From positions 5,941 to 69,940 of the forward strand of contig CAYJRE010000001.1 of NCBI GenBank assembly GCA_964372665.1: a DNA stretch of 64,000 nt, in the 5' to 3' direction. This document shows positions 2,937-59,444 of this stretch, piece after piece. Positions within the stretch are counted from its first letter, which is position 1, and each line of letters opens with the position of its first letter. Source of the DNA: an uncultured archaeon (GTDB taxonomy: Archaea; Iainarchaeota; Iainarchaeia; Iainarchaeales; VGJJ01). A program made the translations under genes and the position numbers. The notes beneath the pieces are model-generated. The model was not told where the DNA came from and searched no databases. It worked only from the letters and a program-made list of their open reading frames with translations.

Positions 2937-3929
2937 ATGCCAATGTTTATTTATCCGAAATATCTGATTAAAGTGTATATGGTTCGGCGTCCCAGAGGGT
3001 GGTCTCGGAAATCGCCCATTCATTCCGACACCCGCTTTCAAAACAAAACGATTTCATTGGCTCTTTCAGCCGCCAGGAAGGGGAATTTATTGGTGCGGGG
3101 ACGTGACCGCTCCATACCAGGCCTTCGAACCAAGGTCCGTCTTTATCCGGTAGAGCCAGAGGATTTGCAAAAGGGGATAAAAGGGAATGAGGAGGGGGGT
3201 CGTCCCTTGTATATTCATTTCTGGGGAAAGCGGCGTCGCTTTCAAACAGTCGCTGAACGAATCCTTTCTCTGCGTCGTTGGTTGCATCTGAAAATGGCTC
3301 CCCTACAAAAGGAAGGGCACGTGTTGGAAACCCAGCTCTCCCAGGAACGCCGATTCAAGAAGAGGATGCGGTTGAACGCGGTGGAAGACATGGAGCATGT
3401 TATTCCCATTCTGTGGGGGTATGCATCTATTCGAGTGAAGCTAATTCAAAAGCGAATTGAGAAACTGGGGCTACAGCTAAAATTTTTGAGCAATTATCAA
3501 GATTTGACGCAAGACAAATTCGAACAAGTTGATCGGATTCGTGAACGTATTCATCAAATGAACCACTCCCTGAAGAGAGCTGAAGATAGGGCTCAACTAC
3601 TTGAGCGGAGCGGTTCGGAGTTAAGTGAATACCGTCGGATTCGCAATCAAAGCGCTGTTTTTCGGAAGAATTTCTTAACTCGTCAGCGCGAAATGGCTCG
3701 GTACCGCGACAAGTCGGGAATTCCGGAAAACCTGACTCAAAAGTGGGCATCGGCCGGTTTCAATTATTATGTGTGCGAAGTGGATCGGTTGACGCGTGAA
3801 TTGATTATTTTACGGCTGTTGGGTTTGCATTTTCAAGGGCGAAATAAACGAAGCATCCGTGCGGATATGAAAAAGGCTCATAAAGGAAAGCGGAAGTTCA
3901 AGAGACTAATGGAAGAGTACGAAGATTGA
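2937..3929 (+). CDS. hypothetical basic coiled-coil protein
   Basis: Long ORF (track 2835..3929), Arg/Lys/Glu-rich. Start moved to the first Met after the convergent gene end. No recognisable domain. Confidence 0.4.
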   Translation: MPMFIYPKYLIKVYMVRRPRGWSRKSPIHSDTRFQNKTISLALSAARKGNLLVRGRDRSIPGLRTKVRLYPVEPEDLQKGIKGNEEGGRPLYIHFWGKRRRFQTVAERILSLRRWLHLKMAPLQKEGHVLETQLSQERRFKKRMRLNAVEDMEHVIPILWGYASIRVKLIQKRIEKLGLQLKFLSNYQDLTQDKFEQVDRIRERIHQMNHSLKRAEDRAQLLERSGSELSEYRRIRNQSAVFRKNFLTRQREMARYRDKSGIPENLTQKWASAGFNYYVCEVDRLTRELIILRLLGLHFQGRNKRSIRADMKKAHKGKRKFKRLMEEYED

Positions 3930-3939
3930 TCCTTTTTTG

Positions 3940-5541
3940 TTACAGTTTCTTTTGCACGAACGCCCCATTCTGTTCATACCCTACCTTTTTGTAGTATTCT
4001 CTTACTCCTATTCCTGCGATGATGTTTATTTTTTCGAAACCAAACTCGTTTTTGGCTATTTGTTCGGCTTCGCTCAACAATTTTTTTCCCCATCCTTTGT
4101 GTTGGCCTGATTTTTCCATTTTTTCGCCGAGGGGGACGCTTTGTCCATACACGTGCAACTCTCGGATGTAGGCGGAATCTTGTAATTCGGGAAGCACATA
4201 GTCATGCGGGATGCGCAAGCGGATGAATCCAACCAGAATGTTCTGCTCCACATCTTCTGCAGACGCGAAGATTTCCTTTCCGTGCGAGGCTTCGTAATCC
4301 CTTCTTACCAATTCTATTTTTGCGGGTGAAATGCCTTCTTTCACGCGTTTGAATCCCATTTCTCGGCACCGAATACATCGGCATTTCTGTCCATTTTCTT
4401 TCATTCGTTCTTCGACCATTTGTCGCAAATTGGTTTTTTTGACTCCTGCTGAAATATTTTGGGTGGGAATGTCGCGTTGCACGCGCATGATTCGAACCCA
4501 TTCCGGGATTTGGGGTTTGAGTTGAGCGTAGAACTCCACGGCTTCCTCTTGCGTCATTTCCTGATATTCTCCTTTTTCCCACATTTTGTACAATGCCGTG
4601 TTTTTCACTACTGCGACGGGATAGAATTTCACCATATCTGGCGCAAAATCAGGGTTTTGGAATATTTCCAAGTGCGCGTTCATATCTCGTTTCAAATTCG
4701 AATACGGGAGCTTGCTCATCATGTGATAACCGACTTTCAAGCACGAATCTTTCAGTCGTTGCGTGGCATCAATGGTGGTTTGAATCGTGTGTTGCCGGTT
4801 GAGTTTTTCTAAAATATCATCATACACGCTTTGCACCCCTAACTCTACGCGTGTCGTGCCCCATTCGAGCATGCGTGTAATATCGCTCTTTTTGGCGACG
4901 TCCGGCCTTGTTTCCATCGTGATACCAATAACCCTATTCTCACTGGACTCGCATGCCGTTACACTTTGTCCAAAATTTTCCTGTTTTTTTCCTGCGATTC
5001 CATCCAAACACCCTTGCATGAATGCATATTGGTAATCGATTGGCATGGAGAGGAATGTTCCCCCCATGATGATGAGCTCGCATTTGTTTGTGCTTTGTCC
5101 CGTGGCTTGCAATTGTTTGATGCGGGAAGTGATTTGCTTGAATGGATCGAATTCGTTTCGGTATCCGCGTTGGGCGGCGGGTTCGTCTCCCGTATAAGCG
5201 GGTGGAGCGGGGTGATTTAGTCCTTTCGGGCAGTAGATGCATGTTCCGTGCGGGCAAAGGTGGGGTTTCACCATCGCCGCCAACACGGCCACTCCCGAAA
5301 TGTTTCGCACGGGTTTGATGGAGAATAATCCGCGTTGCTCGTCCGTGAGTCCTTCCGAAAGTAATGGTAACAAATCCGGATTCGTTGGAAGATGGGAGAG
5401 ATTCAGTCCGTCCGCCAGTGCTCGCTTGGCGGCATCCAACTGTTTTTTGGTCGTTATTTTTTCGGATTTTATTCCGTCACGGATTCGTTGGGCTAACCGG
5501 TGGTGCGGTTTTTCGACTTCTTGAATGTTTTTTTCGGCCAT
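3940..5541 (-). CDS. elp3: Elp3-type tRNA uridine(34) carboxymethyl-modification enzyme (radical SAM + GNAT)
   Basis: 533 aa. The radical-SAM Cys cluster CPHGTCIYCP, a radical SAM core and a C-terminal GNAT acetyltransferase domain match archaeal Elp3 end to end. Confidence 0.85.
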   Translation of the reverse strand: MAEKNIQEVEKPHHRLAQRIRDGIKSEKITTKKQLDAAKRALADGLNLSHLPTNPDLLPLLSEGLTDEQRGLFSIKPVRNISGVAVLAAMVKPHLCPHGTCIYCPKGLNHPAPPAYTGDEPAAQRGYRNEFDPFKQITSRIKQLQATGQSTNKCELIIMGGTFLSMPIDYQYAFMQGCLDGIAGKKQENFGQSVTACESSENRVIGITMETRPDVAKKSDITRMLEWGTTRVELGVQSVYDDILEKLNRQHTIQTTIDATQRLKDSCLKVGYHMMSKLPYSNLKRDMNAHLEIFQNPDFAPDMVKFYPVAVVKNTALYKMWEKGEYQEMTQEEAVEFYAQLKPQIPEWVRIMRVQRDIPTQNISAGVKKTNLRQMVEERMKENGQKCRCIRCREMGFKRVKEGISPAKIELVRRDYEASHGKEIFASAEDVEQNILVGFIRLRIPHDYVLPELQDSAYIRELHVYGQSVPLGEKMEKSGQHKGWGKKLLSEAEQIAKNEFGFEKINIIAGIGVREYYKKVGYEQNGAFVQKKL

Positions 5542-12597: not shown

Positions 12598-12629
12598 GGG
12601 TTATCCTCTTTCTCTTTTATTTTAAGGAG

Positions 12630-12704
12630 CGACCCCGGAGGGATTTGAACCCTCGACCTCCGGGTCCGAAGCCCGGCACTCTATCCAGACTAAGCTACGG
12701 GGCC
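12630..12704 (-). tRNA. tRNA-Arg (anticodon UCG), CCA not encoded
   Basis: Reverse complement folds as a cloverleaf: acceptor stem GGCCCCG/CGGGGTC, anticodon loop CUUCGGA, T-arm GGGTTCAAATCCC. Confidence 0.8.
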
Positions 12705-12737
12705 AACCCTGATACTATATTTGATTTATCGAGGGGT

Positions 12738-12891
12738 TGAAAACCCCTCTGCATAAGCCTTCGCAGTGGCCCGCCGAAACGGGCCAGCTACTGGGCCGTA
12801 GCACCTATTTTTCAGTTGGCGTATGTAGGGTTGCAAACCCTACGATAGTCTCTCGCAGTGGCCCGCCGAAACGGGCCAGCTACTGGGCCAA
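12738..12891. repeat. two tandem units, each a short GC hairpin followed by a conserved 37-nt element TCGCAGTGGCCCGCCGAAACGGGCCAGCTACTGGGCC
   Basis: Unit hairpins are GAGGGGTTGAAAACCCCTC and GTAGGGTTGCAAACCCTAC. The 37-mer is an exact repeat with an internal GGCCCG-CCGAAA-CGGGCC hairpin. It lies immediately 3' of the tRNA-Arg locus. Confidence 0.5.
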
Positions 12892-19033: not shown

Positions 19034-19068
19034 AACGAGCGTATCAATCCTTGAATCAAGCGATGTTC

Positions 19069-19225
19069 ATTCGAACTTTTTAGAAAAAAGTTCGATCAAA
19101 AAGGTCTGATACCTCGCCCTTTAGGGCGACATTCGTCGCCCATTGTTTGGCGAGCGAGCACGCGAGCAAGTGTCGTTCATGCCCAATTGGATACCGTGGC
19201 CTTTAGGCCACGGAGGAGGTCATTC
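19069..19225. repeat. ~157-bp hairpin-rich repeat, family C, copy 1
   Basis: Identical to 30659..30816 as read by eye (no alignment was run). Contains hairpins TTCGAACTTTTTAGAAAAAAGTTCGA, CGCCCTTTAGGGCG and GTGGCCTTTAGGCCAC. Confidence 0.75.
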
Positions 19226-20857: not shown

Positions 20858-20981
20858 CCATTTTCACTGACACTCTCGCGTCCGAAGCCCCTGCCTTTCA
20901 GGCAAGGGTAAAGGCGTAGCCGTTTGTCAATCGCGCTTTCTCCAACGCCATTTCAACAGGAGCCCACGCCTTTAGGCGTGG
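20858..20981. mobile_element. MITE-like element, family A, copy 1 (~124 bp, imperfect TIR CTGACACTC...GAGTGTCAC)
   Basis: Near-identical (about one difference in ~124 bp) to 53067..53190. Internal hairpins CCCCTGCCTTTCAGGCAAGGG and CCCACGCCTTTAGGCGTGGG. Confidence 0.75.
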
Positions 20982-20991
20982 GAGTGTCACG

Positions 20992-23823: not shown

Positions 23824-24213
23824 ATGGAAGCCATTATTGAGGTCGAAGAGTTGCGTCAGGACTGGAAGCCTCCTTTTGCCAAGAAGAGGGAAACCAAGTC
23901 TTTTACGTTGAAAGAGGGGGAAACGTTTGAAACCCTGCGGGATGGGGCTCCTTTATTCACGCTTCAATCGATTCAGGGGGACAAAGTACTGGTCCAATAT
24001 AGCCGTCATTATTCGTTGAAAGGGTTCGAGCACCCTACTGAAAGAAAGATTTGGTTGAACATTCATGACCCCAAGAAATTTTCCTCGTTGTGGGAGGATA
24101 ACGGGGTGACTAAAACGGTTACATTGAGGCAAGTCAATGGCGTTCATTCCGACCCTGCCCAATCACCGGAAAACAGAGACGTGACCGAAAACACTGAAAT
24201 CTATCGTCCCTAG
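23824..24213 (+). CDS. hypothetical protein
   Basis: 129-aa ORF with no motif. Confidence 0.35.
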   Translation: MEAIIEVEELRQDWKPPFAKKRETKSFTLKEGETFETLRDGAPLFTLQSIQGDKVLVQYSRHYSLKGFEHPTERKIWLNIHDPKKFSSLWEDNGVTKTVTLRQVNGVHSDPAQSPENRDVTENTEIYRP

Positions 24214-24597
24214 TGCTCAGCTTTAAGCAACTGTTTATTATTCATCATTCGGTCTTTATCGGCATGTATATGGCTTCTCGTCATTCTCGACTAGGGGGGC
24301 GTCGTCTTCTTTCTCCTGAGAATGTGGCTCGCACTCGATTCAGTTTGACGCAACATATTCGTGCGATTAGTCGCTCGGGATTGAAAGCAAGGGATGCGCA
24401 GCAAGCGAGAGAAAAGTCGCTCACCCTCGCAGACTGTTTTAAGGGAATATTAACGCGCTCCAGTCGTTCGCTTTCCCCTGAAAGGAAAAAAATCTACTGC
24501 ACTATTTCGAAAATTTTCGTCTCAGGTCAGAGCAGTTCGTTCGGCTTATGCGCGTACCCAACAAGCTAGCGAGGGAAAGTCGGAATATGCGGCCCAA

Positions 24598-25386
24598 TTG
24601 GTTTTTGCCCAATTTGAAAACAATGTTGTTTCGGAATTTGGCCCAGCAAGGGGGAGAAAATTGTTGGAAATTTGTTATTTTGATAAGTGGCTCGAGCGTT
24701 GGTATGCGAATCCTTCCCCCGACAAAAGCTTTTTCGTGAGCGCCCGAGAAATACTCGAAGTGCTTCATCGGAATAGGCGTCTGATTGGAAAAATCCTCAA
24801 GCGGTATCACGTGCCAGAAGAGAAATGGCAGTATTACTTGGATGAGATTCCATTAATGATGCTTAAGGATATGAAAACATACAATCCAGAAAAGGGGCGA
24901 TCTCTCACCTCTTACATTTACGAGCGGTCCCTCTTTCAATTTTTTGCTCTCCATCGGAGAGAGCGGCGGTCCAGAGAAACGGTTATTCGTGCCACACGCG
25001 TGGAAGAGGATATGAGCGTCCGTGAAGATGTGGTAACCCCTTCCATCGCCGAATTGGTGTCGAGTGCTCGCGATAGTCGACGAGTCCGTCGTGTTTTACT
25101 AGCGCTTCCAGAGCGAGAGCAATTAATCATACGGAGGATTTACTACGATGACCTCGATAACGTCACTGAAACTCCCACGCCCGAAGCCCCTGCCTTGAAG
25201 GCAGGGGTAAAGGCGTCGCAATGATTATTGCGTTTTTTCAAAGCAATCCCGGAAGAAGCCCACGCCTTTAGGCGTGGGAGTTTCACACTCTCACGGGAAA
25301 TGGGTATATCCCGTGAGCGCGTTCGGCAACTTCGAAATAACGCGGAACACCATTTTTTGGAAGCGTGGCGTAGGCAACAAGAGTAG
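24598..25386 (+). pseudogene. sigma-70-family (ECF-like) factor gene interrupted by MITE B1. Region 2-like and 4-like blocks are both present.
   Basis: YNPEKGRSLTSYIYERSLFQFF resembles sigma region 2.2-2.3, and LPEREQLIIRRIYYDDL resembles region 4.1. The ORF stops at a TGA inside the repeat (25224). In the same frame, 3' of the repeat, comes MGISRERVRQLRNNAEHHFLEAWRRQQE*, a region 4.2-like HTH, ending at 25386. Confidence 0.55.
25164..25286. mobile_element. MITE-like element, family B, copy 1 (~123 bp, TIR CTGAAACTCCCACGCC...GGCGTGGGAGTTTCAC)
   Basis: Identical to 55532..55654 as read by eye (no alignment was run). Related to family A through the shared core CCCGAAGCCCCTGCCTT-AAGGCAGGGGTAAAGGCGT...CCCACGCCTTTAGGCGTGGG. 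Confidence 0.75.
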
Positions 25387-25439
25387 CGTCTTTCGACTTG
25401 GCTCACTATTTTATAGGCGCTGTTGTTCCAGTTATCCCT

Positions 25440-25793
25440 ATGGTTTACACGCAAGTCATCGTGGTTCGCAAAGATTTGGACATGAAGAAAGGAAAAATAG
25501 GGGCCCAGTGCGCGCACGCTTCTCTTTCTTCTTTTTTGAAATCGCAAGAAAAAAAGTGGGGTTCGGGTTGGCAGGAGTGGTTGGATGAGGGCATGCAAAA
25601 AATAGTTTTGAAAGCCAAAGATGAGAATGAGCTCCTGCAGCTCTATAACGAAATCAAAAACAAATTTCCGTGCACACTCATTACCGATGCGGGCCACACG
25701 CAGGTTTCTCCCGGAACCAAAACGTGCATCGGCATCGGTCCAGCGAAGGAAAGCGAATTGAAGAAATACACGGGTCATTTAAAGCTGCTGTAG
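25440..25793 (+). CDS. pth2: peptidyl-tRNA hydrolase, archaeal type (Pth2)
   Basis: KMKKGKIGAQCAHA and downstream Pth2 pattern. Internal Met of track ORF 25398..25793. Confidence 0.75.
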   Translation: MVYTQVIVVRKDLDMKKGKIGAQCAHASLSSFLKSQEKKWGSGWQEWLDEGMQKIVLKAKDENELLQLYNEIKNKFPCTLITDAGHTQVSPGTKTCIGIGPAKESELKKYTGHLKLL

Positions 25794-30618: not shown

Positions 30619-30658
30619 AGAATTCGCCCAACCTCCTTTTTTTTGTTTTAACTTTTTT

Positions 30659-30816
30659 GATTCGAACTTTTTAGAAAAAAGTTCGATCAAAAAGGTCTGA
30701 TACCTCGCCCTTTAGGGCGACATTCGTCGCCCATTGTTTGGCGAGCGAGCACGCGAGCAAGTGTCGTTCATGCCCAATTGGATACCGTGGCCTTTAGGCC
30801 ACGGAGGAGGTCATTC
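30659..30816. repeat. ~157-bp hairpin-rich repeat, family C, copy 2
   Basis: Same sequence and orientation as 19069..19225. Confidence 0.75.
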
Positions 30817-31416: not shown

Positions 31417-34400
31417 GTGGGTTATTGCATGGCCAAAGAGGATAGTTCCAAGTCGACGAATCGGGGTCGTGTTTCCAGGTTGGCAGAGGAGATTCCGGCC
31501 CCTTCTCCGAATGAGGATTTGTCCGAGCTCATGCGAAAGATCAATGCGCTGCAGTCCGGCACCGGTTCTTCCTCCCCTAACTTGGATGTCGAAAAGTTGG
31601 CTCATTATGAAATGCGGAAGGAGCCCCTTCCTCCGGAAACCCCTGAGCTTGTTCCAATCGGAGGAAAGGAGGGATTGTCTCCCCCTCCTTCGAGTAAAAC
31701 CCCTCCCTTGGCCACTGAGGAAGCGTATTCGTATTCGCAAGTGGTCCAAGATCTCCAGAAGGTGGGAACTGAAGCCAATGTTTCGACGTTTGAGTCGCGT
31801 ATCGCGGACAAGCCCAAGAAGTTGATTGAAGAATATGGCCAAACTCGGATTTACAAAGTGCAAGGCGAGATTTTATTGTATTACTGGGTTCCCGTCGCCC
31901 GCCCCACGGTTTCCGAGCGTGTCGTCATCAACACCCTAAAGGAAGCTACGACTCGGCTCATCAGCATAACCCCCTATCGCATTCGGGATCCGGAGCAAAA
32001 GAGGAATGTGTACGCGCAACAGGTCTTGGAGATTTTGCGGGCTTCTCCCGAGTTGAAAGTGCCTTCGAGCAAGTTTGGTTTCTATGCGACTGCGGTTGTG
32101 ACCGAGATGGTGGGGTATGGATTGGTGGACTCGTTGATTAAGGACGATAATTTAGAAGAAGTCATGATCATTGGTCCCAATGTCCCGGTGTATGTTTTTC
32201 ACCGCAAATACGATATGATGACTACCAACGTCGAGTTTACGGCGGATAATGAAATTCAGGATTTGATTAATCGGATTGCCCGTGAGATTGGAAGGAGGGT
32301 GGATATTTCTTCTCCTATGTTGGATGCGCGTCTCCCCGATGGTTCGCGTGTGAATGCCACTATCCCCCCCGCTTCCGTTTCAGGCTCCACGCTCACGGTT
32401 CGAAAGTTTCGTGCCGAACCTTTTTCGGTGGTGGATTTGATTCTGAACAAGACGATGAGTGCGGAGGTTGCGGCCTTTTTGTGGTTGTGCGTGGATGGGT
32501 TGTTGGCGCAACCGGCCAACTTATTGATTTCGGGGGGCACTAGCTCTGGAAAAACCACGCTGTTGAACGTGTTGTGTTCCTTTATTCCGCCGATGGAGCG
32601 CGTGATTTCGATTGAAGATACTTCCGAGCTCAATTTGCCGTTGAAGCACTGGATTCGGTTGGAAGGAAGGCCGCCGGGTTTGGAAGGGAAGGGAGAAATT
32701 ACGCTCGATATTCTCACCAAAAACTCGTTGCGGATGCGGCCGGATCGAATCATTGTGGGGGAAGTCCGCCACGATGAGGCCTTTTCGTTGTTCACGGCGA
32801 TGAACACGGGACACGATGGTATGGCTGCGCCGGAAACACTCGTGCAATTCGATGACGGTTCGATCAAACCGATGGGTGCGTTTTGCGAGGACTATTTTTC
32901 AGCGCTCCCCATTATCTCGAAAGGGGATATGGAAGCAGTATACTTACCTGATGATGCGCCGAGCGTGGTGGCGGTAAATAAATTCAATTTGAAGCAGGAA
33001 AAGGCAAAAGTCAAAGCAATTTGGAGAAGAAAGTGCCATAAGTCGTATCGGGTGGTGTTATCTTCGGGTCGGGAGATTAAACTCTCGCACGACCATCCTG
33101 TTTTCCGTTTGAAGGATGGTTTTCTCCAGCAAGTGCAGGCCCGCGAGGTCCGATTAGGCGATTATTTGGGAGCGATCGGTGAATTCGTTATTTCGGGGCA
33201 AGATGCGGACGAACATGCTTCCTATTTCGTGGGGTTGGTGCTGGGAGGCGGCCACCTGCGGAAAGATGTGGTGAGTTTCACGAATAGGAATGAGCGCTTG
33301 CATCGATTGTTTTTGGATTCTGCGAATAAGGCCTTTGGTGTGGTCGGGAAGACCTACCCACGAAAGAACGAGATTTCCGTGTCAATGATTAATTCTGCCT
33401 CTTTTGCAAAGAGTATTCATGAGCATTTTGGTATCCCCTTTGGAAATAAAACCAAGATTTTTGATGTTCCACTAGAAATTGAAAAGTCATCACTCAACTG
33501 TGTTGGTTTCTTTCTCCGGGGAATGTTCGATACCGGTGGGAGCGTTTCTTCGATCCGGAAAAGCATTTGTTTGTCCACCGCAAACCCAAACGTGTTGAGG
33601 AAGGTTCCGTTATTGCTCAAGCTTTTCGGAGTTGAGTCTAGGATTAATGTGCAGCAAAGAGACGGCAGAGGGAATGCGGGCCCTTATTATCGTATTTTCA
33701 TTACGGGAGAGAAAAATTTGCAGGCTTATCATGAAAACATTGGATTTGGTCATTCTGAAAAGCGGGCCAAACTGGTCTCCATTTTAGGAGTAAAATCGAA
33801 TACCAACGTGGACTTGGTACCAGATGTTGGATTGGTCATCCAAAAGGCCCGGAAAGGGTTGGACTTTACCCAAAAAGAGTTGTCGATGAAAGCGGGTCTG
33901 GGCAAAAGCCGATCGATGTTGAATGCGTATGAAGCGGGGTCGCGAAGTCCTTCGCGTGAAACACTAAGGAAGGTGGTGCGGGTTTTGATTGACCGCTTTA
34001 ATGATAAAGCGAGGGAGTTTGGTAGGTACGATTATGGCTTGGCTGATGCCAAGGAATCGGAAGGTCTAAAATCGATTCGTTCGTTGATTACCCACCTTAA
34101 CGCCCTTTCGAATGGTCATATCATATGGGATAGAGTGAAAACGATTACCGTTAATGACGAGGATTCTCTTTATTACGATTTGACGCTTGATACTATCCAC
34201 ACCTTTACCGCGAATGGAGTCGTGATTTCAAATTGTATGGGCACCATTCATGCGAATTCAGCAGAGGAAACGTTGACACGTGTTACCAATCCTCCTATGA
34301 ACGTGCCCGGAGTCATGCTTTCGGGATTGAATTTTGTGATTATCGAAAACCTTTTTCATTCCGCGACCAGGGGTTCTTATAGACGAGTCACGGAGATTGC

Positions 34401-34659
34401 AGAAGTCACCGGTGTTTTAGAAGGAAAGGCGCATACTCAACCTATTTTTTCGTGGGACGCTGTGAAGGATGAATTGGTGCGAAACAATACCCCTATCAAG
34501 TATTTGGATCGGGTGTCCGCTCTTTCGGGGAGAAGTGTTTCGGAAATCGAGATGGAATTTAAAAGGAGAGAGCGATTTTTACAGGGGTTGGTGGACCGCA
34601 ATGTGCGCAGCCTTAAGACCGTTTCCATGTTAGCTGAAGAGTTTGTGGGAGGAGAATGA
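31417..34659 (+). CDS. type IV pilus assembly ATPase (FlaI/TadA family) containing an intein
   Basis: S/P-rich N-terminus, Walker [11 protein letters not shown], Asp box [11 protein letters not shown]. The His box NTGHDG...[11 protein letters not shown] is split by a ~471-aa insertion with LAGLIDADG-like motifs. Confidence 0.8.
32821..34233 (+). mobile_element. intein with LAGLIDADG homing-endonuclease domain inside the pilus ATPase. Position 1 is Met, not the usual nucleophile (Cys/Ser/Thr)
   Basis: Block A-like [23 protein letters not shown] blocks [12 protein letters not shown] and [15 protein letters not shown]. Block [22 protein letters not shown] followed by +1 Cys. The host junction aligns with the intein-free paralog, TGHQG/CLGT. 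Confidence 0.65.
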
Positions 34660-48349: not shown

Positions 48350-51300
48350 ATGGCTCCCCTTCCCAATCCATCCCCGAGTCAGAATGCCAGTTCTGTGCCG
48401 GGCCCCAAACGATCCGTCGTGTTAAAGGTCCAGGAGCCTTCTCCTACCCACGTGGGAAGAAACATTGTCACGTTGGATCGAAAGTCCAAGCAATTGTTGG
48501 GGATTACTTCCGGGGACATTGTTGAGATTGAAGGATCAAAAAAAACAGCCGCGATTGTGTGGCCGGCTCGTACGGAGGATGAGGGGAAGGACACGATTCG
48601 CATGGACAACTTAATCCGTCACAATGCGGGGATAAACTTAGGTGAAAAGGTTTCAGTGAGACCAGCAGTGTTCAAAGAGGCCCAGAAAGTGGTGCTAGCT
48701 CCCACACAGGACGTGCATATTATTGCATCCGGGTATGAGCGGATTCTCAAAAAAACATTTATTGGAAGGCCGTTGACGCGGGGAGACAATGTTTGGATTA
48801 CTGTTTTTGGTTCGGGTTTCATTTACCGTGTGGTGGAAGCCAATCCGCGCGGCATTGTTAAAGTCACGGATTTTACTCAATTCATCCTCAAGGACGAACC
48901 AATCAAGGGAGAATTGGAAGGGGTTCCTCGAATCGCCTACGAAGATGTGGGTGGATTGGGTTCCCAAGTTCAAAAAGTTCGCGAAATGATTGAACTGCCC
49001 ATGCGTCATCCCGAATTGTTCCGAAAACTGGGAATCGAGCCTCCCAAAGGAGTATTGTTGCACGGTCCTCCGGGAACCGGAAAAACGTTGCTCGCGAAAG
49101 CGGTCGCGAATGAGACGCAAGCGCACTTCATTTCGGTTTCCGCGCCGAGCATCATGTGTGTAGGAGAAGACACTCCCATTTTGACGAATCCGAGGGGGGC
49201 TAAAACAGCTAAACTGTTGTTTGATGAAGCTAAATCGAAAGGAAAAGTTGTTCAAGATGGAAGATATGAAGTGGTGGAGTTGCAGGAGCCTTTGTCCGTA
49301 TTCGGTCTAGATGCTGACCTGAAAATAAAGAAGGGGCGCATTACTCACCTCACAAAACTCAAAGCACCTGCTTTGCGCGTGCGAAATAATTTAGGAGATG
49401 AAATCGTTGTTTCGAGCAACCAGCCCTTTGCCATGCTGGACGCATTCGGAAATTTGTCATGGAAAACGGCAGGGAACATGGTGGAAGGGGAATACGTTGC
49501 GTGCGCGAGCGAACTTCCGGGAGGAAAATCGCATTCATTTGATTTAGGGGGCATAGAAAATAATCCGAAGGCAAGCGTGAAGCGAACAGGAGACGGTTAT
49601 TCCGTGAGAATTTTTGGTGGGCAGCCCGTTCATAATGCGGGTTTTGTATCTTTTCCTGTTTCCACTTCTCCCCAATTCATGCGTGTGATGGGATTAATGT
49701 ATTCGAAAGGGTGTCTTTCGAAGGATGGGCTCGATTTTTCAAACCAAGATTTGGTACTCAAAAAAGAGTTTAATGTCCTTGTAAAGCAACTCTTTGGACT
49801 TGAAGGGGTCATCAAGAAAGACAGGGTTGCGGTTTATTCACGAACATTGCGTGAGCTGTTTGTTAGAGTATTGGGATACCCCGTGGGCCCGAAGAAAAAC
49901 TATCATTTACCTTTATGGATGTTTGGTTTAACGAAAAAGGAAACGGCTGGTTTTATTCAGGGCTATTTTGAGGGAGATGGAACAGTTGGGTTGTCAGGTA
50001 ATGAGTATCCGACCATCCGTTTGTATGCAAAAGCAAAAACAGCGCTGGGAGATATTAATATTTTACTCCGAAAGATGGGGCTTATAGCCAAGCTCGTCCC
50101 GTGGAAGACTCCATTAGGATTGATGCACTGCCTGGAGCTTTTAGGCAGCCAATCGCGGGAGCTTTTTGCTCAACAAATGGATTCTACCACTCCAAAGTTC
50201 GCTCGCTTGAAAAAGTGGTTGAACCAAAGGAAGAAATCGGGGGATGACTTGCATATCCCCTCAATTGGGCCACTTCTGCAATCAGTCAAGAAAGCAAAAG
50301 GTCTTATTTACGGTAAAACCCTTCCAGAAGGTCCGACTGAAAGATATATTTCGGGCAGAGACCCTTTGACGTATCGAAAGCTCGAAGAAATAGATGGATT
50401 GATGGGGCACGATCCTGCCTTACAAAAGATAATGCGCGCCAATATTCGTTGGGCCCGGATTGAATCGATTCAAGATGAAGGAGAAAAAGAGCTATACGAT
50501 TTAACCGTTGAACCTTTCAGCAATTTTTTAGGCGGATCAAGCCTGATGGTGCTTCACAATTCCAAATTCGTTGGGGAGGCCGAAGAAAGAGTTCGGCAAA
50601 TTTTTAAGGAGGCTGAAGAGAATGCCCCGAGCATTATTTTCATCGATGAGATTGATGCGATTGCCCCGAAGAGGGAAGAAGTGATTGGAGAAGTCGAGCG
50701 TAGAGTCGTGGCGCAATTGCTTTCCTTGATGGATGGAATGGAAGCGCGGGGAAATACTATTGTGATTGCGGCCACGAACCGCGTGAATTCTATTGATGAG
50801 GCATTACGGAGGCCGGGACGATTCGATCGCGAAATTGAGATTGGCGTTCCGGATAAGGAGGGTCGGAAAGAGATCCTGCAGATTCACACACGGGGAATGC
50901 CTCTGGGAAAGGTTGGGGATAGGACAGTGGATCTGGATTATTTTGCAGGTATTACTCATGGTTTTGTTGGTGCAGACTTGACTGCGCTGGCCAAAGAATC
51001 CGCCATGAAAGCCCTGCGGAGATATTTGCCTGAAATTAACTTACAGGAAGAGACTATTCCGGAAGAAGTCTTGGAGAAGATGGAAGTTACCCGATCAGAT
51101 TTTGAAGATGCATTAAAGGAAATTCAGCCATCTGCCTTGCGTGAGGTAACCGTGGAAATTCCAAACGTGAAGTGGGAAGACATTGGGGCATTAGAAGATG
51201 TCAAAGCCCAGTTGCGGCAGGCCGTTGAGTGGCCACTGAAAAATCCAGGGATGTTTAAGGAGATGGGTGTCCGGCCCACGCGAGGAATTCTATTATATGG

Positions 51301-51997
51301 CCCCCCCGGCACGGGGAAAACACTTTTAGCTAAGGCAATTGCCACTGAAAGTCAAGCTAATTTCATTTCAATTAAAGGGCCGGAGTTATTCAGCAAGTGG
51401 GTGGGGGATAGCGAAAAGGGTATTAGACAAGTGTTCAAACGCGCGCGTCAGGTTGCCCCGTGTATCGTTTTCTTTGATGAATTCGATTCCATTGCTTCAT
51501 ATCGTGGAAGCAGCGCTGACTTTGGAGTGGGGGAGAGAGTGGTTAATCAATTATTGACGGAGTTGGACGGGATTGAGTCATTGAAAGATGTTGTGTTTGT
51601 CGCGGCTACGAATCGTCCGGATTTGATCGATCCCGGATTGTTGCGTCCGGGTCGGATCGACAAACAGGTTGAAGTAAAGATGCCAGATGAGAAAGCTCGA
51701 TTAAAGATTTTGGATATCCAGACACGTGGTGTCAGAATGGAAAAAGGCATCTCCCTGAATGAATTAGCCAAACGAACGCCAAACTTTTCAGGGGCCGATT
51801 TATCATGTTTAGTGCGCGAAGCTGCCATGTTTGCATTGGAGAAAAATAAACTTAAACCAACCCCCATCACGATGAAACATTTTGAGGAAGTGTTGGAACG
51901 CATGATTGGCAGTGTTAGCCCGGAAGCCGTCGAATCGTTCGCAGAATATCGTAAAAGCAAAACATCCGAAGGGTTCAAGCCCAATTATGTGCGCTGA
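48350..51997 (+). CDS. cdc48: Cdc48/VCP AAA+ ATPase (two AAA domains) containing an intein in D1
   Basis: N-domain, then D1 Walker [16 protein letters not shown]. The host sequence [10 protein letters not shown] / [15 protein letters not shown] is interrupted. A complete D2 follows ([15 protein letters not shown] ... SIAS ...). Confidence 0.9.
49157..50560 (+). mobile_element. canonical intein with LAGLIDADG endonuclease domain in Cdc48 D1 (468 aa)
   Basis: Starts with Cys ([10 protein letters not shown]). LAGLIDADG block [15 protein letters not shown]. Ends SSLMVLHN, followed by +1 Ser. Confidence 0.8.
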
Positions 51998-53003: not shown

Positions 53004-53066
53004 CCACCAATCAACCAGGAAGCGTTATTTAAGGGTATTATCCTCCGAAAGCGTTCTACATACTTT

Positions 53067-53190
53067 ACTGACACTCTCGCGCCCGAAGCCCCTGCCTTTC
53101 AGGCAAGGGTAAAGGCGTAGCCGTTTGTCAATCGCGCTTTCTCCAACGCCATTTCAACAGGAGCCCACGCCTTTAGGCGTGGGAGTGTCA
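53067..53190. mobile_element. MITE-like element, family A, copy 2
   Basis: Same sequence and orientation as 20858..20981. Confidence 0.75.
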
Positions 53191-53249
53191 CCTGAAAATT
53201 TTACCTAGTTTTAATTGTTTTTCGGTTACCTTGTGAAGCAGGTGAGAAC

Positions 53250-55450: not shown

Positions 55451-55531
55451 GCCCGAGTTTGTTTTTTGGAAGAGGTTAAAAAGCTAGGCAAAATTTTTTG
55501 GGGTGAGGGAGGGGGTGATGATTTTTTTTTT

Positions 55532-55654
55532 CACTGAAACTCCCACGCCCGAAGCCCCTGCCTTGAAGGCAGGGGTAAAGGCGTCGCAATGATTATTGCG
55601 TTTTTTCAAAGCAATCCCGGAAGAAGCCCACGCCTTTAGGCGTGGGAGTTTCAC
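55532..55654. mobile_element. MITE-like element, family B, copy 2
   Basis: Same sequence and orientation as 25164..25286. Confidence 0.75.
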
Positions 55655-56014: not shown

Positions 56015-58225
56015 TTATGTTTCGATTTCGGCTGCAGCGGCTGTTTCGATTTCGGCTTTGGTCGCGGCTCCACCTAGGATTCCGCCCGCACTTTGGGCGG
56101 TTTCATCCACTTTTTTTTCTAATTCTTCGGCTCGTTCCTCGAGTTCTTGGGCTTGTTTTTCTATTTCGGCTTGGGCTTGTCGGTCTTGGGTTCCCTTTCC
56201 GGCTTCCCGCAATAGTCGAGCGGTTCGGTCGAGTTTGTGGGCCGCATGCCTCCATTTGGCAATGTTTTGGACTTCTTGTCCCTTATTGAATCCGAGGACT
56301 TTTCCAATTCCGTAGAAGAAATCATTCTTTTTCTCTTCTTCAAATTGGTCTGCCGCTTGGGCTTTTTCAGCCGCCGTGACTAATTCATCGGTCGCCGTGC
56401 CCACGATGGCCACTCCTTCTGCATCCTCCAAATAGTCGGATAACCTGGAAATGTCATCGATGGCATCTACTTCGATCGCTTGTTTTCGGGCTTTGCTGAG
56501 CTTGTCTTTCACCACTTCGAGCCGGCACACCCGTTCCACGTGTTCCGTAATGTGTTCTCGGATTTTTTCTCCGGTTGTTTGGCTTTGGCATTGGCTCCAT
56601 TGGCGCCGCGCAAACTTGAGGGTGCGCTCCGCGTGCTCGGAACATTGATTCTGTCCCTCTTCCATTTGTTCGCAAATCTGTTCGAATTGGTCTAATTGGA
56701 ATTGGGCTTGTAATTCGCACATCGTGCTCACTTTTTCTTCGATGTCTTCGAACGGATTGAACTCGGATTGTTGGCTTTGGCAATCGCTTTTGTATTTGGT
56801 TGAGTCAAAGGAGCCGGTTTCGCGGTCGCAATAATCCATGGGTTCCAAGTGTCCCCCGCCTCCAAATCCGGGCCCTCCCCCAAATCCTCCTCCGAACCCA
56901 CCGGGTCCGCCGGGAAATCCGCCGGGTCCCCCACCGTATTGTTCAGGTCTCCCCCCTCCGAAACCACTGGGTCCACTTGGATAGGGTTGGGGTCCTTCAT
57001 ACGGTCCAGGTCCAAATCCTGGGGGGGGATATTGTTGCTGACCTGGGTAAGGTTGAGGTCCGCTTGGATATTGTCCGGGTTGCGATACCCCTGGGAATCC
57101 TCCACTCGGATAATTGGGGTCGTAGGTTTGGTAAATCGTCACGCCTCCTGTTCCCGGGCTTCCTCCGCTTCCTCCATCGGGCGGAGGCTCTCCGCCACCG
57201 CCGCTTCCTCCTTCGGGCGGGTAATAAGGGCGTTGGGGATAATTGTTCTGCCAGTCTTGTTGATTCCATTGTTGGTTTTGTTCCCATTGTTTTTTTTCCC
57301 ATTCTTTTCGTTGCGCCTCGTTTTTGACTTCGCGCTCGCAGATGCGCTGCGCGTCATCGATTCGGTTATTGCACTGGTTGCTCATTTGTTTTTCGAATCG
57401 TTCTTTTTCCTTTCCCAATTGCTCTTGGGCGCGTTCCTTACATAATGCAATCACGTTCTCTTCGGAGGGCGGACAGCTGAATGGGGCATCCTTGGGTTTG
57501 AATCTACCAAAGAGCTCAGGCAGCTTTCCACAGAATTCCTTCACTTTTTCTGCCCGCGAAACCATTTTCTCGAAGCGCTTGCACACTTTCGAGAAGTTCA
57601 CGTTGGTTCCAATCCGCGAAAAGATGTCCTGAACAATCTCGTCCTCTTGGTTATCTAAGCATTTTTGGGTGTATCCGGATAATGTCTCGGGTTCGATCTC
57701 GCTGAACATGGCGCTTCCCACTTGTCCGCGAATGCTGGCGTTGATTACATCATCTTCCCTCAAACCAAAATCGCTGAAGGTAATACTGTTTTCTCTCGGC
57801 AATTCCACTCCCAAATCGCGCTCGTTAAATCCGCCGATTTCTTCAAACGGGTCTTGTCCAAATCCCGGTCCTCCAAATGGGTCTCCGCCAAATCCGGGTC
57901 CCCTGCCAAAACCACCAGGTCCAAAGTCTTGGGGTCCGCCGAATCCGCCGGGCCCGCTTGGGCCAAATCCTTGTCCGCCTTGTCCAGAATCATTCGGTCC
58001 TCCGAATGGTTGTTCTTGCGGGGGAAATCCCCCTTGTTGATTCGGGTCGCTCGGGAAACCGAAGGGGCTTCCCGCGGTTTGCAAACCAGTCGCGGGACTT
58101 TTTCCTTTGTACCAACCAAAGTCGGCAAAGGCAATGGGGATGGCGCTCGCTAATACAGCAAAAACAATCGCCAGCGAAGAGATCTTTTGGAAAGAGTATT
58201 GGGGGTGTTTCATGAGCAAACGCAA
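56015..58225 (-). CDS. large secreted protein with Gly/Phe/Pro/Gln-rich repeats, Cys-rich modules and C-terminal coiled coil (unknown function)
   Basis: Sec-type signal peptide (ISSLAIVFAVLASAIPIAFA). Repeated GGFGGPGFG / GPGGFGGG tracts. More than 20 Cys in paired patterns. Glu/Lys/Ala-rich tail. 736 aa. Confidence 0.6.
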   Translation of the reverse strand: MRLLMKHPQYSFQKISSLAIVFAVLASAIPIAFADFGWYKGKSPATGLQTAGSPFGFPSDPNQQGGFPPQEQPFGGPNDSGQGGQGFGPSGPGGFGGPQDFGPGGFGRGPGFGGDPFGGPGFGQDPFEEIGGFNERDLGVELPRENSITFSDFGLREDDVINASIRGQVGSAMFSEIEPETLSGYTQKCLDNQEDEIVQDIFSRIGTNVNFSKVCKRFEKMVSRAEKVKEFCGKLPELFGRFKPKDAPFSCPPSEENVIALCKERAQEQLGKEKERFEKQMSNQCNNRIDDAQRICEREVKNEAQRKEWEKKQWEQNQQWNQQDWQNNYPQRPYYPPEGGSGGGGEPPPDGGSGGSPGTGGVTIYQTYDPNYPSGGFPGVSQPGQYPSGPQPYPGQQQYPPPGFGPGPYEGPQPYPSGPSGFGGGRPEQYGGGPGGFPGGPGGFGGGFGGGPGFGGGGHLEPMDYCDRETGSFDSTKYKSDCQSQQSEFNPFEDIEEKVSTMCELQAQFQLDQFEQICEQMEEGQNQCSEHAERTLKFARRQWSQCQSQTTGEKIREHITEHVERVCRLEVVKDKLSKARKQAIEVDAIDDISRLSDYLEDAEGVAIVGTATDELVTAAEKAQAADQFEEEKKNDFFYGIGKVLGFNKGQEVQNIAKWRHAAHKLDRTARLLREAGKGTQDRQAQAEIEKQAQELEERAEELEKKVDETAQSAGGILGGAATKAEIETAAAAEIET

Positions 58226-58331
58226 CTTTTCCCCTATATATAAGATTTTTTGTTTGGATTTTGAAGAGAGCCCCCCTCGCCGCCGAGAAAAAAGAGGTAT
58301 TATAACCTATGGAGGCCATTTTTTGGTGGGT

Positions 58332-59444
58332 ATGGCTCTCGAGAACGTTTTTGCCCGTATTGCGCGGGACCAAGGCATCTTCAAGGATGAGCGCGTATTG
58401 TCTCCCGAGTATGTTCCAGACGTATTGCCGCATCGTGAGAATCAGATAAATTCGCTCGTGTATGCATTACGCCCGCTCGCGGATGGAGGAAAAGCGAGCA
58501 ACGTGTTTGTTTTTGGTCCGCCCGGAACAGGAAAAACGGTGACGTTGAAGTATGTCGTAGACCAATTGAAGGAGTATTCGTCGCGCGTCAAACCGGTTTA
58601 CTTGAATTGTTTTGCGTACAACTCGCGGCAAGCGGTTTTGTCGGAATTAACGCGAGTCGTTGAGCGTCCGGTTCCGGGAAGGGGGATGAGCACGCATGAG
58701 TTGTATGAGAAAGTGTTGGAGGGATTGAAGTTTGCCAAGTTTGTTCCCGTACTCGTGTTCGACGAGTTTGACCAGTTGATGGACCATGATGGCAACGAAT
58801 TGTTGTATGATATTCTTCGCATTCCCGAACAGGGAAGGCCCTTTGTTCCTGTGATTCTCATTTCGAATGATTCTACTATCCTTTCGCAATTGGATGGTCG
58901 CGTGCGCAGTTCGTTTTCTCACGAGCTCGCGGAATTCCAACCCTACACTCCACACCAATTGAAGGGCATTCTCAAAGATCGGGCGAATTTGTCCTTGTTT
59001 CCAAATGTGTTATCGGCCGACACCTTGGGATTGATTGCCGCTCACGCCTCCAAACGGGGAGGCGATGCCCGCGTGGCGATCGAAACCCTTCGAAAGGCCG
59101 CTCGGAACGCGGAGAAGCACAATTCGCATGAGATTTTGCCCGAGCATGCACGCGAAGCCTTTGAAGATAATGAAACTTCGGCAGTATTGAAAGCGGTCCC
59201 CTATTTGTCGGACTCGCACAAGCAAGTCCTAAACGCTCTCTTTTCACTCGGCGGAAAAAATATTCCATCGTTGGACTTGTACTCTCGTTTAGCGTCGCAA
59301 GGCGTGAACATGAGCGACCGGAGAGTACGGGAAATAATCACCGAGCTCGAAAAGAAAAAAGCCATCGCCACGCTCACGGATGCGACCGGAAGAGGGAGGA
59401 CCAAGCGCATTACTGTCAATTTTTCCCAAGAGGCGATGAAATGA
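58332..59444 (+). CDS. cdc6: Orc1/Cdc6 replication initiator
   Basis: LSPEYVPDVLPHRENQINSLV, Walker A GPPGTGKT, Walker B VLVFDEFD, and a C-terminal winged helix. Start at the internal Met of track ORF 58107..59444. Confidence 0.8.
   Translation: MALENVFARIARDQGIFKDERVLSPEYVPDVLPHRENQINSLVYALRPLADGGKASNVFVFGPPGTGKTVTLKYVVDQLKEYSSRVKPVYLNCFAYNSRQAVLSELTRVVERPVPGRGMSTHELYEKVLEGLKFAKFVPVLVFDEFDQLMDHDGNELLYDILRIPEQGRPFVPVILISNDSTILSQLDGRVRSSFSHELAEFQPYTPHQLKGILKDRANLSLFPNVLSADTLGLIAAHASKRGGDARVAIETLRKAARNAEKHNSHEILPEHAREAFEDNETSAVLKAVPYLSDSHKQVLNALFSLGGKNIPSLDLYSRLASQGVNMSDRRVREIITELEKKKAIATLTDATGRGRTKRITVNFSQEAMK

Follow-up and report, generated by a model that had tools for sequence, protein, structure and literature searches.

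A gene for a bacterial-type sigma factor, lying in two pieces among archaeal genes with a short mobile repeat between the pieces, raises the question of what the gene encoded and what interrupted it. The locus occupies positions 24598-25386 of the 64-kb stretch of DNA analyzed here (the window). An earlier note had described it as a sigma-70-family gene split in frame by a 123-bp MITE (miniature inverted-repeat transposable element) and, on the ground that archaea do not use sigma factors, as horizontally acquired or viral. Our analysis favors, with a probability of about 0.78, the view that a DPANN archaeon had an accessory, rapidly evolving gene of the sigma-70 family and that a 120-nt non-autonomous element of the IS200/IS605 family recently knocked it out.

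The interrupted gene and its repaired product

The split in the sigma gene is real. The two open reading frames (ORFs) on either side of the interruption share one frame (both starts are 1 mod 3), and the coordinates of the features are collected in Table 1. All plausible excisions were tried, and only the removal of 120 bp with one TCAC kept restored the frame cleanly; the frame was lost when the 119-nt inverted-repeat unit was removed. The net insertion splits codon Thr190 between its second and third bases, and its excision yielded the sequence ...YYDDLDNVTLSREMGISRERVRQL... within a protein of 222 residues. The interrupted reading frame thus serves as an empty-site control, which fixes the insertion at exactly 120 nt. 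It shows an unoccupied site with a single TCAC and therefore no target duplication in the usual sense. The predicted empty site, derived from the sequence, is GATAACGTCAC joined to ACTCTCACGG (with a longer right side, GATAACGTCAC joined to ACTCTCACGGG).

Table 1. Positions in the window of the sigma gene, the inserted element and its copies, and the adjoining genes
Feature	Position	Strand	Description
5' ORF	24598-25224	+	TTG start, 208 residues, holds YNPEKGRSLTSYIYERSLFQFF and LPEREQLIIRRIYYDDL
3' ORF	25228-25386	+	C-terminal end is MGISRERVRQLRNNAEHHFLEAWRRQQE, then stop
Sigma gene, 5' part	24598-25166	+	Residues 1-189 and two bases of codon Thr190; N-terminal helices, sigma2-like domain, linker, region 4.1 helices
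Sigma gene, 3' remnant	25287-25386	+	Third base of codon Thr190, then LSREMGISRERVRQLRNNAEHHFLEAWRRQQE and stop; region 4.2 helix-turn-helix
Inserted element, subfamily B1	25167-25286	+	120 nt; assigned as non-autonomous IS200/IS605-type, PATE-like; top strand is coding strand
Target or left cleavage tetranucleotide (CL), TCAC	25163-25166	+	Part of the sigma gene (codons GTC AC-)
Putative left guide (GL), GAAG	25183-25186	+	Directly 5' of left hairpin; position as GL of IS608 (PMC3201880)
Left subterminal hairpin	25187-25207	+	CCCCTGCCTT-G-AAGGCAGGGG; foot 20 nt from left cleavage point
In-frame TGA in element	25222-25224	+	Terminates the 208-residue product
Element center	25208-25254	+	47 nt
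Putative right guide (GR), GAAG	25255-25258	+	Directly 5' of right hairpin
Right subterminal hairpin	25259-25278	+	CCCACGCC-TTTA-GGCGTGGG
Spacer AGTT	25279-25282	+	Between right hairpin and terminal TCAC
Right cleavage tetranucleotide (CR), TCAC	25283-25286	+	Last four bases of element
Second B1 copy	55535-55654	+	100% identical, intergenic; left flank TCAC at 55531-55534
B2 copy	20868-20990	+	123 nt, ~78% identical to B1; intergenic, between PALP gene and HerA; left flank TCAC
B2 copy	53069-53191	+	123 nt, intergenic; left flank TTAC
orf129	23824-24213	+	Conserved syntenic gene, function unknown; 54-64% identical in three relatives; left edge of slot
orf118	24213-24569	+	No detectable family; co-directional, start/stop codon overlap; window-specific
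Pth2 (peptidyl-tRNA hydrolase, archaeal/eukaryotic type)	25398-25793	+	139.5 bits; right edge of slot

These results bore out most of what the earlier note had claimed for the reading frames. Neither of the outcomes that the note had named as refuting was obtained: the repaired protein matched sigma-70 profiles significantly, and the downstream remnant kept its frame when the coordinates were verified. The prediction that exact excision would restore a protein of ~220 residues agreed with the 222 residues obtained. The insert was shorter than the 123 bp reported, a figure that may be explained by the length of the B2 subfamily. That the insert length is a multiple of three, as had been pointed out, is of no functional consequence, since an in-frame stop codon lies within the element.

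The 5' ORF ends at a TGA inside the inserted repeat, as had been described. TGA was the commonest stop in the window, closing 24 of the 43 long ORFs, so the TGA inside the element is a genuine stop; an alternative genetic code with TGA as a sense codon was rejected on the same count. The present-day product consists of 190 native residues followed by 18 that the element encodes (ETPTPEAPALKAGVKASQ). Sigma2 and region 4.1 remain in it, and both helices of the region 4.2 helix-turn-helix are missing (helices 188-195 and 199-221 of the structural model). The 3' remnant is undamaged and in frame, its sole possible start is a TTG inside the element, and there is no evident means of expressing it. 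The sigma gene is therefore knocked out by the 120-nt element, with the region 4.2 helix-turn-helix removed. The insertion looks recent because the element has a twin of 100% identity in the window and the remnant shows no decay. The NCBI gene call for the 5' part begins at the TTG at 24664, and the 186-residue 'hypothetical protein' of the public record is the front of this gene and calls for annotation as a disrupted member of the sigma-70 family.

Profile searches placed the repaired protein, and neither of its pieces, among sigma factors. The 222-residue protein scored 37.8 bits against Pfam Sigma70_r4 (PF04545; cut-off, 24.1 bits) over residues 167-209 and, by a narrow margin, 45.3 bits against NCBIfam TIGR02937, the model of the superfamily that includes the extracytoplasmic function (ECF) sigma factors (sigma70-ECF; cut-off, 42.9 bits), with residues 56-209 aligned to model positions 7-157 of 165. 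The unrepaired pieces each failed: the 5' ORF had no region 4 match and the 3' remnant scored 18.9 bits against Sigma70_r4. A HMMER search of 1.84 billion representative proteins returned 68 matches with an E-value of 0.001 or lower, all of them remote; the best relatives, the window's own protein excluded, were 25-30% identical (E ~1e-7), and the alignments usually ran from residue 50-55 to ~208/210. Pfam sigma region 4 was detected in eight of the ten best remote relatives and region 2 also in six of those eight. In the multiple alignment, the residues at the junction matched the region 4.1-4.2 spacing of the remote sigma factors without a gap, which gives independent support for the 120-bp boundary, and the YNPEKG..S.TSY block aligned with region 2.2-2.3, in register with region 2 of the remote homologs.

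Structural comparison pointed in the same direction. An AlphaFold model built on the multiple alignment had a mean predicted local distance difference test score (pLDDT) of 84.9, with confident blocks at residues 51-130 (pLDDT ~86-96) and 151-222. The top 50 Foldseek matches in the PDB were all bacterial sigma factors (SigL, sigma32, sigma28, SigE, SigA, and others) with probabilities of 0.96-1.0; the TM-scores of this whole-chain search were low (0.25-0.33) because the relative placement of the two domains differs. The named matches in BFVD, a library of viral structures, were phage sigma factors. From the profiles and the model, we accepted the repaired protein as a predicted member of the sigma-70 superfamily with a divergent region 2, as the earlier note had proposed for this archaeal contig, and its predicted architecture is the two-domain, ECF-like one (sigma2, linker, sigma4).

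The inserted element and its relatives

The element that interrupts the gene carries a hairpin near each end and a tetranucleotide, GAAG, directly in front of each hairpin. As direct variants of each other, the two hairpins differ by compensatory changes. Four copies are present in the window and fall into two subfamilies. The copy in the sigma gene and its twin are 100% identical with the left flank included (25163-25286 and 55531-55654), and the two B2 stretches, also with flank (20863-20990 and 53064-53191), are 98% identical to each other and ~78% identical to B1. Six occurrences of the 15-nt end motif were counted in the window, where chance would give 0.11. All copies in the window end in TCAC, and their flanks diverge directly outside. 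The four left flanks are TCAC in three cases and TTAC in one, and the sequence farther upstream is unrelated. The guides are GAAG at both hairpins in B1, and GAAG (left) and GGAG (right) in B2. An Rfam scan of the window detected tRNA-Arg only, and the element matched no known RNA family.

Relatives of the element were sought in larger collections. A 29-nt pattern of the right end had no match in JGI metagenomes and a single match among 185,579 species-representative genomes, at positions 1-80 of a 3.2-kb contig (L001) from a metagenome-assembled genome of Methanobacteriota (JAUWIL010000154.1); this match comprised the right end only (GATG guide, hairpin, TTTCAC) and lay at the start of the contig, with the upstream element cut off. 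The genome of the window is evidently absent from this set of representatives. Neither element end was matched in viral contigs. When JGI metagenome contigs were scanned with the 22-nt core of the right hairpin, 45 loci were recovered. At seven of these (L002, L006, L008, L011, L021/L024, L030, and L033), the right-end hairpin stood 7-15 nt past the stop of ORFs of ~155-180 codons with HUH and catalytic-tyrosine motifs, and all five of the ORFs scanned (L002, L006, L008, L011, and L030) matched Pfam Y1_Tnp at 86-110 bits. At two further loci (L004 and L028), it directly followed TnpB genes with OrfB_IS605 and Cas12f1-like TNB domains. Across Y1_Tnp and TnpB genes, the right-hairpin 22-mer stood 5-15 nt after the stop codons; these genes belong to other metagenomes and not to the present genome. 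Gene-less relatives with both ends were inserted 3' of TCAC at L009, L017, and L027.

Left ends were recovered as well. At these loci, an unrelated flank was followed by TCAC and then by AGAATCCGTCGCAGGAAG and a hairpin, often at a contig end, which is expected because multi-copy insertion sequences break assemblies. The left-end group comprised L010, L013, L018, L022, L029, L038, L039, L045, and L046, and its layout was TCAC, AGAATCCG(T/C)CGCAGGAAG, hairpin, and GAATGCGAC, often exactly at the contig end. One further relative (L043, ~1-160) appeared to have its left part interrupted just past the left hairpin by an AT-rich insertion, which may be a nested insertion.

This layout is that of IS200/IS605 elements, among them IS608 of Helicobacter pylori. 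The transposase of IS608, TnpA, binds subterminal hairpins and cleaves the top strand 3' of TTAC on the left and at a terminal TCAA on the right; TTAC lies 19 nt 5' of the foot of the left hairpin and TCAA 10 nt 3' of the foot of the right one. The cleavage sites are recognized through 4-nt guides just 5' of the hairpins (AAAG on the left), insertion occurs 3' of TTAC, and excision of IS200/IS605 elements reseals the donor with no bases gained or lost (PMC3201880). The present element has corresponding parts: its target is TCAC or TTAC, compared to TTAC in IS608, its end is its own cleavage tetranucleotide, the cleavage points lie 20 nt 5' and 8 nt 3' of the hairpin feet instead of 19 and 10 nt, and a 4-nt guide precedes each hairpin, with the last guide base able to pair with the last cleavage base.

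The last of these likenesses could be followed across loci. In 32 instances, the fourth guide base covaried with the fourth cleavage base (G:C in 24, A:T in six, and C:G in two; one further instance was unclear), where only the fourth position is informative and some instances are duplicate contigs of one locus. The TCAC sites were accompanied by the guide GAAG (19 instances) or by AAAG, GGAG, or GATG (5 instances), the TCAT sites by GAAA (6 instances), and the TCAG sites by GAAC (2 instances). The covariation is what the IS608 rule (AAAG with TTAC) predicts.

Three groups of short mobile elements were compared with the present one. It shares with IS200/IS605 elements (IS608 and ISDra2) and with the palindrome-associated transposable elements (PATEs) of Haloquadratum walsbyi the lack of target duplication and insertion 3' of a fixed tetranucleotide; its right end is common to elements that encode Y1 TnpA or TnpB, and, like PATEs, it lacks the length needed to encode a protein. 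The family differs from PATEs, whose original definition lacks terminal inverted repeats (PMC3119063), in the perfect complementarity of its terminal 15 nt. It differs from both groups in that its left and right hairpins are distinguished by compensatory changes, in that no autonomous partner was seen on the same contig, and in its DPANN host; we met no description of such elements in DPANN, although no search was aimed at them. REPINs, pairs of REP palindromes that domesticated Y1 transposases (RAYTs) mobilize, resemble it as short (~100-120 nt), hairpin-rich, non-coding repeats that depend on an HUH Y1 enzyme and fold into one long single-stranded hairpin. However, in other metagenomes the ends that match the present element, of which the left and right forms are distinct, border tnpB genes and tnpA genes of the ordinary, multi-copy, IS200-like sort rather than a single-copy RAYT, and the two hairpins of the present element are direct rather than inverted copies. 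By its ends and target sites, the element is of the IS200/IS605 type; because the complementarity of its ends (15 of 15 nt) departs from the PATE definition, we call it PATE-like rather than a strict PATE.

The anatomy of the element suggests how the gene was lost. A Y1 (HUH) TnpA encoded elsewhere in the genome would excise the top strand of the element as a single-stranded circle, the predicted junction of which is GGGAGTTTCAC joined to TGAAACTCCC (also written GGCGTGGGAGTTTCAC joined to TGAAACTCCCACGCC). The circle would have been pasted 3' of TCAC on the coding strand, within codon Thr190, without target duplication. The flanking and terminal TCAC would be recognized by base pairing with the GAAG before both hairpins and would not be read by TnpA itself. 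Translation now halts at the TGA of the element and gives the 208-residue product without region 4.2.

A second dispersed repeat of 160 bp was found in the window, with copies at 19066-19225 and 30657-30816 that are 99% identical. It has two hairpins with TTTA loops (TCGCCC-TTTA-GGGCGA and CCGTGGCC-TTTA-GGCCACGG) and the end GGAGGAGGTCATTC, and resembles the TCAT-type right ends of loci L002 and L025. It is probably another family of IS200/IS605-type mini-elements.

Setting of the gene and competing explanations

Several observations weigh against the knock-out of a resident sigma gene by an IS200/IS605-type element. The Pfam model of region 2 (Sigma70_r2, PF04542) matched residues 58-124 of the repaired protein at 13.3 bits (E = 0.074), below its cut-off of 24 bits, so the profile check that the earlier note had suggested succeeded for region 4 and failed for region 2, and the tryptophan pair of region 2.3 is missing. 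Neither an intact allele nor a close ortholog was found among the ~15 billion protein sequences searched. No tnpA or tnpB was detected in the window by tblastn and Pfam searches, so that the mobilizing enzyme is inferred. The outermost 15 nt of the element (TGAAACTCCCACGCC and GGCGTGGGAGTTTCA) are complementary at all 15 positions, which the PATE definition excludes, and the mere four local copies would also allow the TCAC flank to be taken for a 4-bp duplication of a specific site. Lastly, interrupted and empty sites may coexist as a mixed population. Four competing explanations were considered.

The first denies that the sigma gene and its neighbor, orf118, are resident: an integrated virus or other mobile element would have brought them as cargo, or they would have come very recently from a bacterium or phage. 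The window encodes an eRF1-like protein, an archaeal CCA-adding enzyme, Rad50, HerA, NurA, Pth2, Cdc48, and Orc1/Cdc6 (58107-59444, which may mark the replication origin), as well as a pilus ATPase (intein-containing, like Cdc48) and an archaeal prepilin peptidase, and some of the proteins 60-69% identical to its NurA bear the names Candidatus Diapherotrites or Iainarchaeum. On this evidence, the host belongs to the DPANN archaea and is of the Iainarchaeota/Diapherotrites type. Three related contigs were reached through their NurA genes: L047, L048, and L049, the last from a 1.05-Mb record of Candidatus Iainarchaeum (CP064981.1). The gene order NurA, orf129, a variable slot, Pth2, GTPase, orf232, and orf227 is common to all three, with proteins 35-74% identical. 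The slot is empty in L048 (5376-5443), where the orf129 homolog adjoins Pth2, and holds unrelated genes for proteins of 226 and 565 residues without a Pfam family in L047 (2941-5455). Its occupants in the window (24213-25397) are orf118 and the sigma gene (together 24213-25386), a pair seen there alone. Occupation of a variable slot in a conserved order marks the two as an accessory pair.

The differing contents of the slot and the remote relatives lend some weight to the cargo explanation. Four of the five nearest remote sigma homologs with inspected contigs sit on phage-like or mobile-element-like contigs; those of P0009, P0010, P0011, and P0014 (including L050 and L052) consist of tightly packed, co-directional, mostly unannotated ORFs, and a phage portal gene, HNH endonucleases, or PcfJ are likewise encoded on the contigs of the nearest homologs. 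Sigma matches were obtained in PHROG, but PHROG matches were weak. The earlier note had asked whether the closest relatives were bacterial or viral; at a best identity of 25-30%, they give a weak hint that the nearest relatives are sigma factors of phages or mobile elements.

Other features of the segment speak against cargo. Its G+C content (0.45-0.52) is that of the surroundings, the insert is merely ~1.2 kb, and neither flanking direct repeats nor an integrase gene was found in the segment. The closest tRNA is ~12 kb away and offers no target. An integrated provirus at this position was rejected on these grounds. Because the protein is at most 30% identical to anything known, no sampled donor can have passed it on recently. 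Related Iainarchaeota also have a divergent sigma-70 gene of their own beside Pth2 (L049), and sigma-70 genes are recurrent in DPANN, where mis-binning was ruled out and no anti-sigma factors were found (Castelle et al., 2021, PMC8204110). We therefore regard the cargo explanation as unlikely, and the view that a sigma gene in an archaeon must be foreign or viral as too strong, given both this recurrence, with a sigma factor named by NCBI in a complete Candidatus Iainarchaeum genome, and the native character of the segment.

The second competing explanation accepts the gene as resident and questions its product: the protein would be a helix-turn-helix regulator with a sigma4-like DNA-binding domain and an N-terminal half unrelated to sigma2, and not functionally a sigma factor. 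The low Sigma70_r2 score agrees with this, as does the presence, beside HerA in the relatives, of further proteins that have a sigma4-, GerE-, or HTH_7-like domain. A cell of this type initiates transcription with a TBP/TFB-dependent RNA polymerase. Archaea lack the bacterial core RNA polymerase that sigma2 would bind, and no genes for it were seen in the 64-kb window. Against this, TIGR02937 spans both domains above its cut-off, the remote HMMER alignments run from residue ~50 to 210, the YNPEKG..S.TSY block matches region 2.2-2.3, and the whole-chain fold matches are full sigma factors. We regard this explanation as unlikely, about as much so as cargo.

Sigma-like genes elsewhere in DPANN place the protein in context. 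L049 encodes its own 314-residue sigma-like protein between Pth2 and GTPase (3314-4258, minus strand), which scored 23.8 bits against Sigma70_r2 and bears the NCBI name 'sigma-70 family RNA polymerase sigma factor'; it is nearly an orphan, with only two homologs in 5.8 billion clusters. Proteins of ~320 residues with a Sigma70_r4_2- or GerE-type helix-turn-helix are encoded downstream of HerA in L048 (9720-10667) and L047 (10259-11242). The present gene resembles the DPANN sigma-70 family (fam00359, PMC8204110; Candidatus Iainarchaeum P0191) as a bacterial-type protein with sigma2 and sigma4 amid archaeal informational genes and without a recognizable anti-sigma partner. It differs in that the published cases are mainly from Woesearchaeota, whereas this genome is of the Iainarchaeota type, in being a near-orphan (30% identity or less to 1.84 billion representatives and ~23% to the Candidatus Iainarchaeum protein), and in being interrupted. 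With the minimal sigma factors of the ECF group (group 4) and of phages, it shares two domains without regions 1.1 and 3 in ~200 residues, TIGR02937 as the best NCBIfam model, fold matches to SigL, SigE, SigK, and phage RpoE-like proteins, and nearest remote relatives on phage-like contigs. It differs from them in an extra N-terminal helical segment of ~50 residues, a divergent region 2.3/2.4, the lack of an adjoining anti-sigma gene, and a host without bacterial core RNA polymerase.

We took the intact protein to be a DNA-binding transcription regulator, probably of bacterial or phage ancestry, and not a general initiation factor. The variable slot and the tolerated inactivation indicate that the present sigma copy is dispensable, which argues against an essential role in initiation.

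The third explanation concerns the element, which the earlier note had called a MITE: a classical MITE with terminal inverted repeats would owe its movement to a DDE transposase whose preferred 4-bp target, TCAC, is duplicated on insertion, and the resemblance to IS200/IS605 elements would be secondary. The perfectly complementary terminal 15 nt would suit such an element, and folded as single-stranded DNA the whole element forms one long hairpin (-41.4 kcal/mol, z = -10). TCAC also stands on both sides of the element, as it would after a 4-bp duplication. However, this 'duplication' is TCAC almost throughout (one copy has TTAC, and just at its left side) and lies partly within the inverted repeat itself, so that a classical MITE, with a variable duplication outside its inverted repeats, was not what we found. 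The guide, hairpin, spacer, and TCAC are the right end of elements that encode Y1 transposases or TnpB, and the covariation of guide and cleavage site across loci is not predicted by a DDE mechanism. Insertion of IS200/IS605 elements is strand-specific and coupled to the lagging strand (PMC5027513), and the identical orientation of the four window copies, which has a chance of 1 in 8 otherwise, is suggestive of insertion of this kind. The short mobile repeat of the earlier note is thus retained, but as a predicted peel-and-paste element of the IS200/IS605 type; a DDE-mobilized MITE is quite improbable.

If the IS200/IS605 assignment is right, the exact excision that the earlier note had envisaged is normal chemistry for the family and not a lucky event, and the insertion could in principle be exactly reversible, given a cognate TnpA, because the family excises seamlessly. 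This leads to the fourth explanation, in which the element excises and re-inserts exactly, a sub-population makes full-length sigma, and the locus is phase-variable rather than a pseudogene. Exact resealing of the donor (PMC3201880), an undamaged 3' remnant with a repaired protein above the family thresholds, and a very young insertion with a 100% identical twin are all compatible with a switch. A young insertion accounts for the intact remnant equally well, though, and no empty-site allele was present in the ~15 billion protein sequences: besides the truncated protein of the window itself, a word-indexed search returned just two weak matches to sigma factors of bacterial type, and the cluster of the truncated product has a single member. 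No transposase is encoded in the window, the other three copies are intergenic, and nothing suggests that the sigma gene was targeted. A switch is accordingly as improbable as a MITE, and a recent knock-out remains our preferred interpretation. A bolder proposal, in which DPANN sigma-70-like proteins engage the archaeal RNA polymerase (they could do so through the clamp coiled-coil that TFE and Spt4/5 also use, or by acting at promoters independently of TBP/TFB) and their genes are toggled by seamless IS200/IS605-type insertion and excision, would make the split gene a record of one regulatory state, open to reversal, of an initiation module of bacterial type that operates in an archaeon, but we consider it very unlikely.

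Significance and minor features of the window

Sigma-70-family genes in DPANN and IS200/IS605 elements with transposase-free derivatives in archaea are already known, and a transposon within a gene is ordinary. What is new is an orphan sigma-like protein whose gene occupies a variable slot next to Pth2 in a genome of the Iainarchaeota type, together with a mini-element family identified by its TCAC target and its predicted guide rule. The locus is a clean, internally controlled example of insertion, and it points to the activity of a family of IS200/IS605-type mini-elements in DPANN genomes that resemble Iainarchaeota. The unexplained sigma-70-like genes of DPANN gain a further, very divergent member.

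Two other kinds of feature were observed in the window. Two large LAGLIDADG inteins lie at 31417-34659 and 48350-51997; one interrupts a type IV pilus/secretion ATPase and adds an HTH_3 domain, and the other interrupts Cdc48. A ~64-bp sequence is present in two copies that are 84% identical (12734-12797 and 12828-12889), beside tRNA-Arg(TCG) at 12629-12704.

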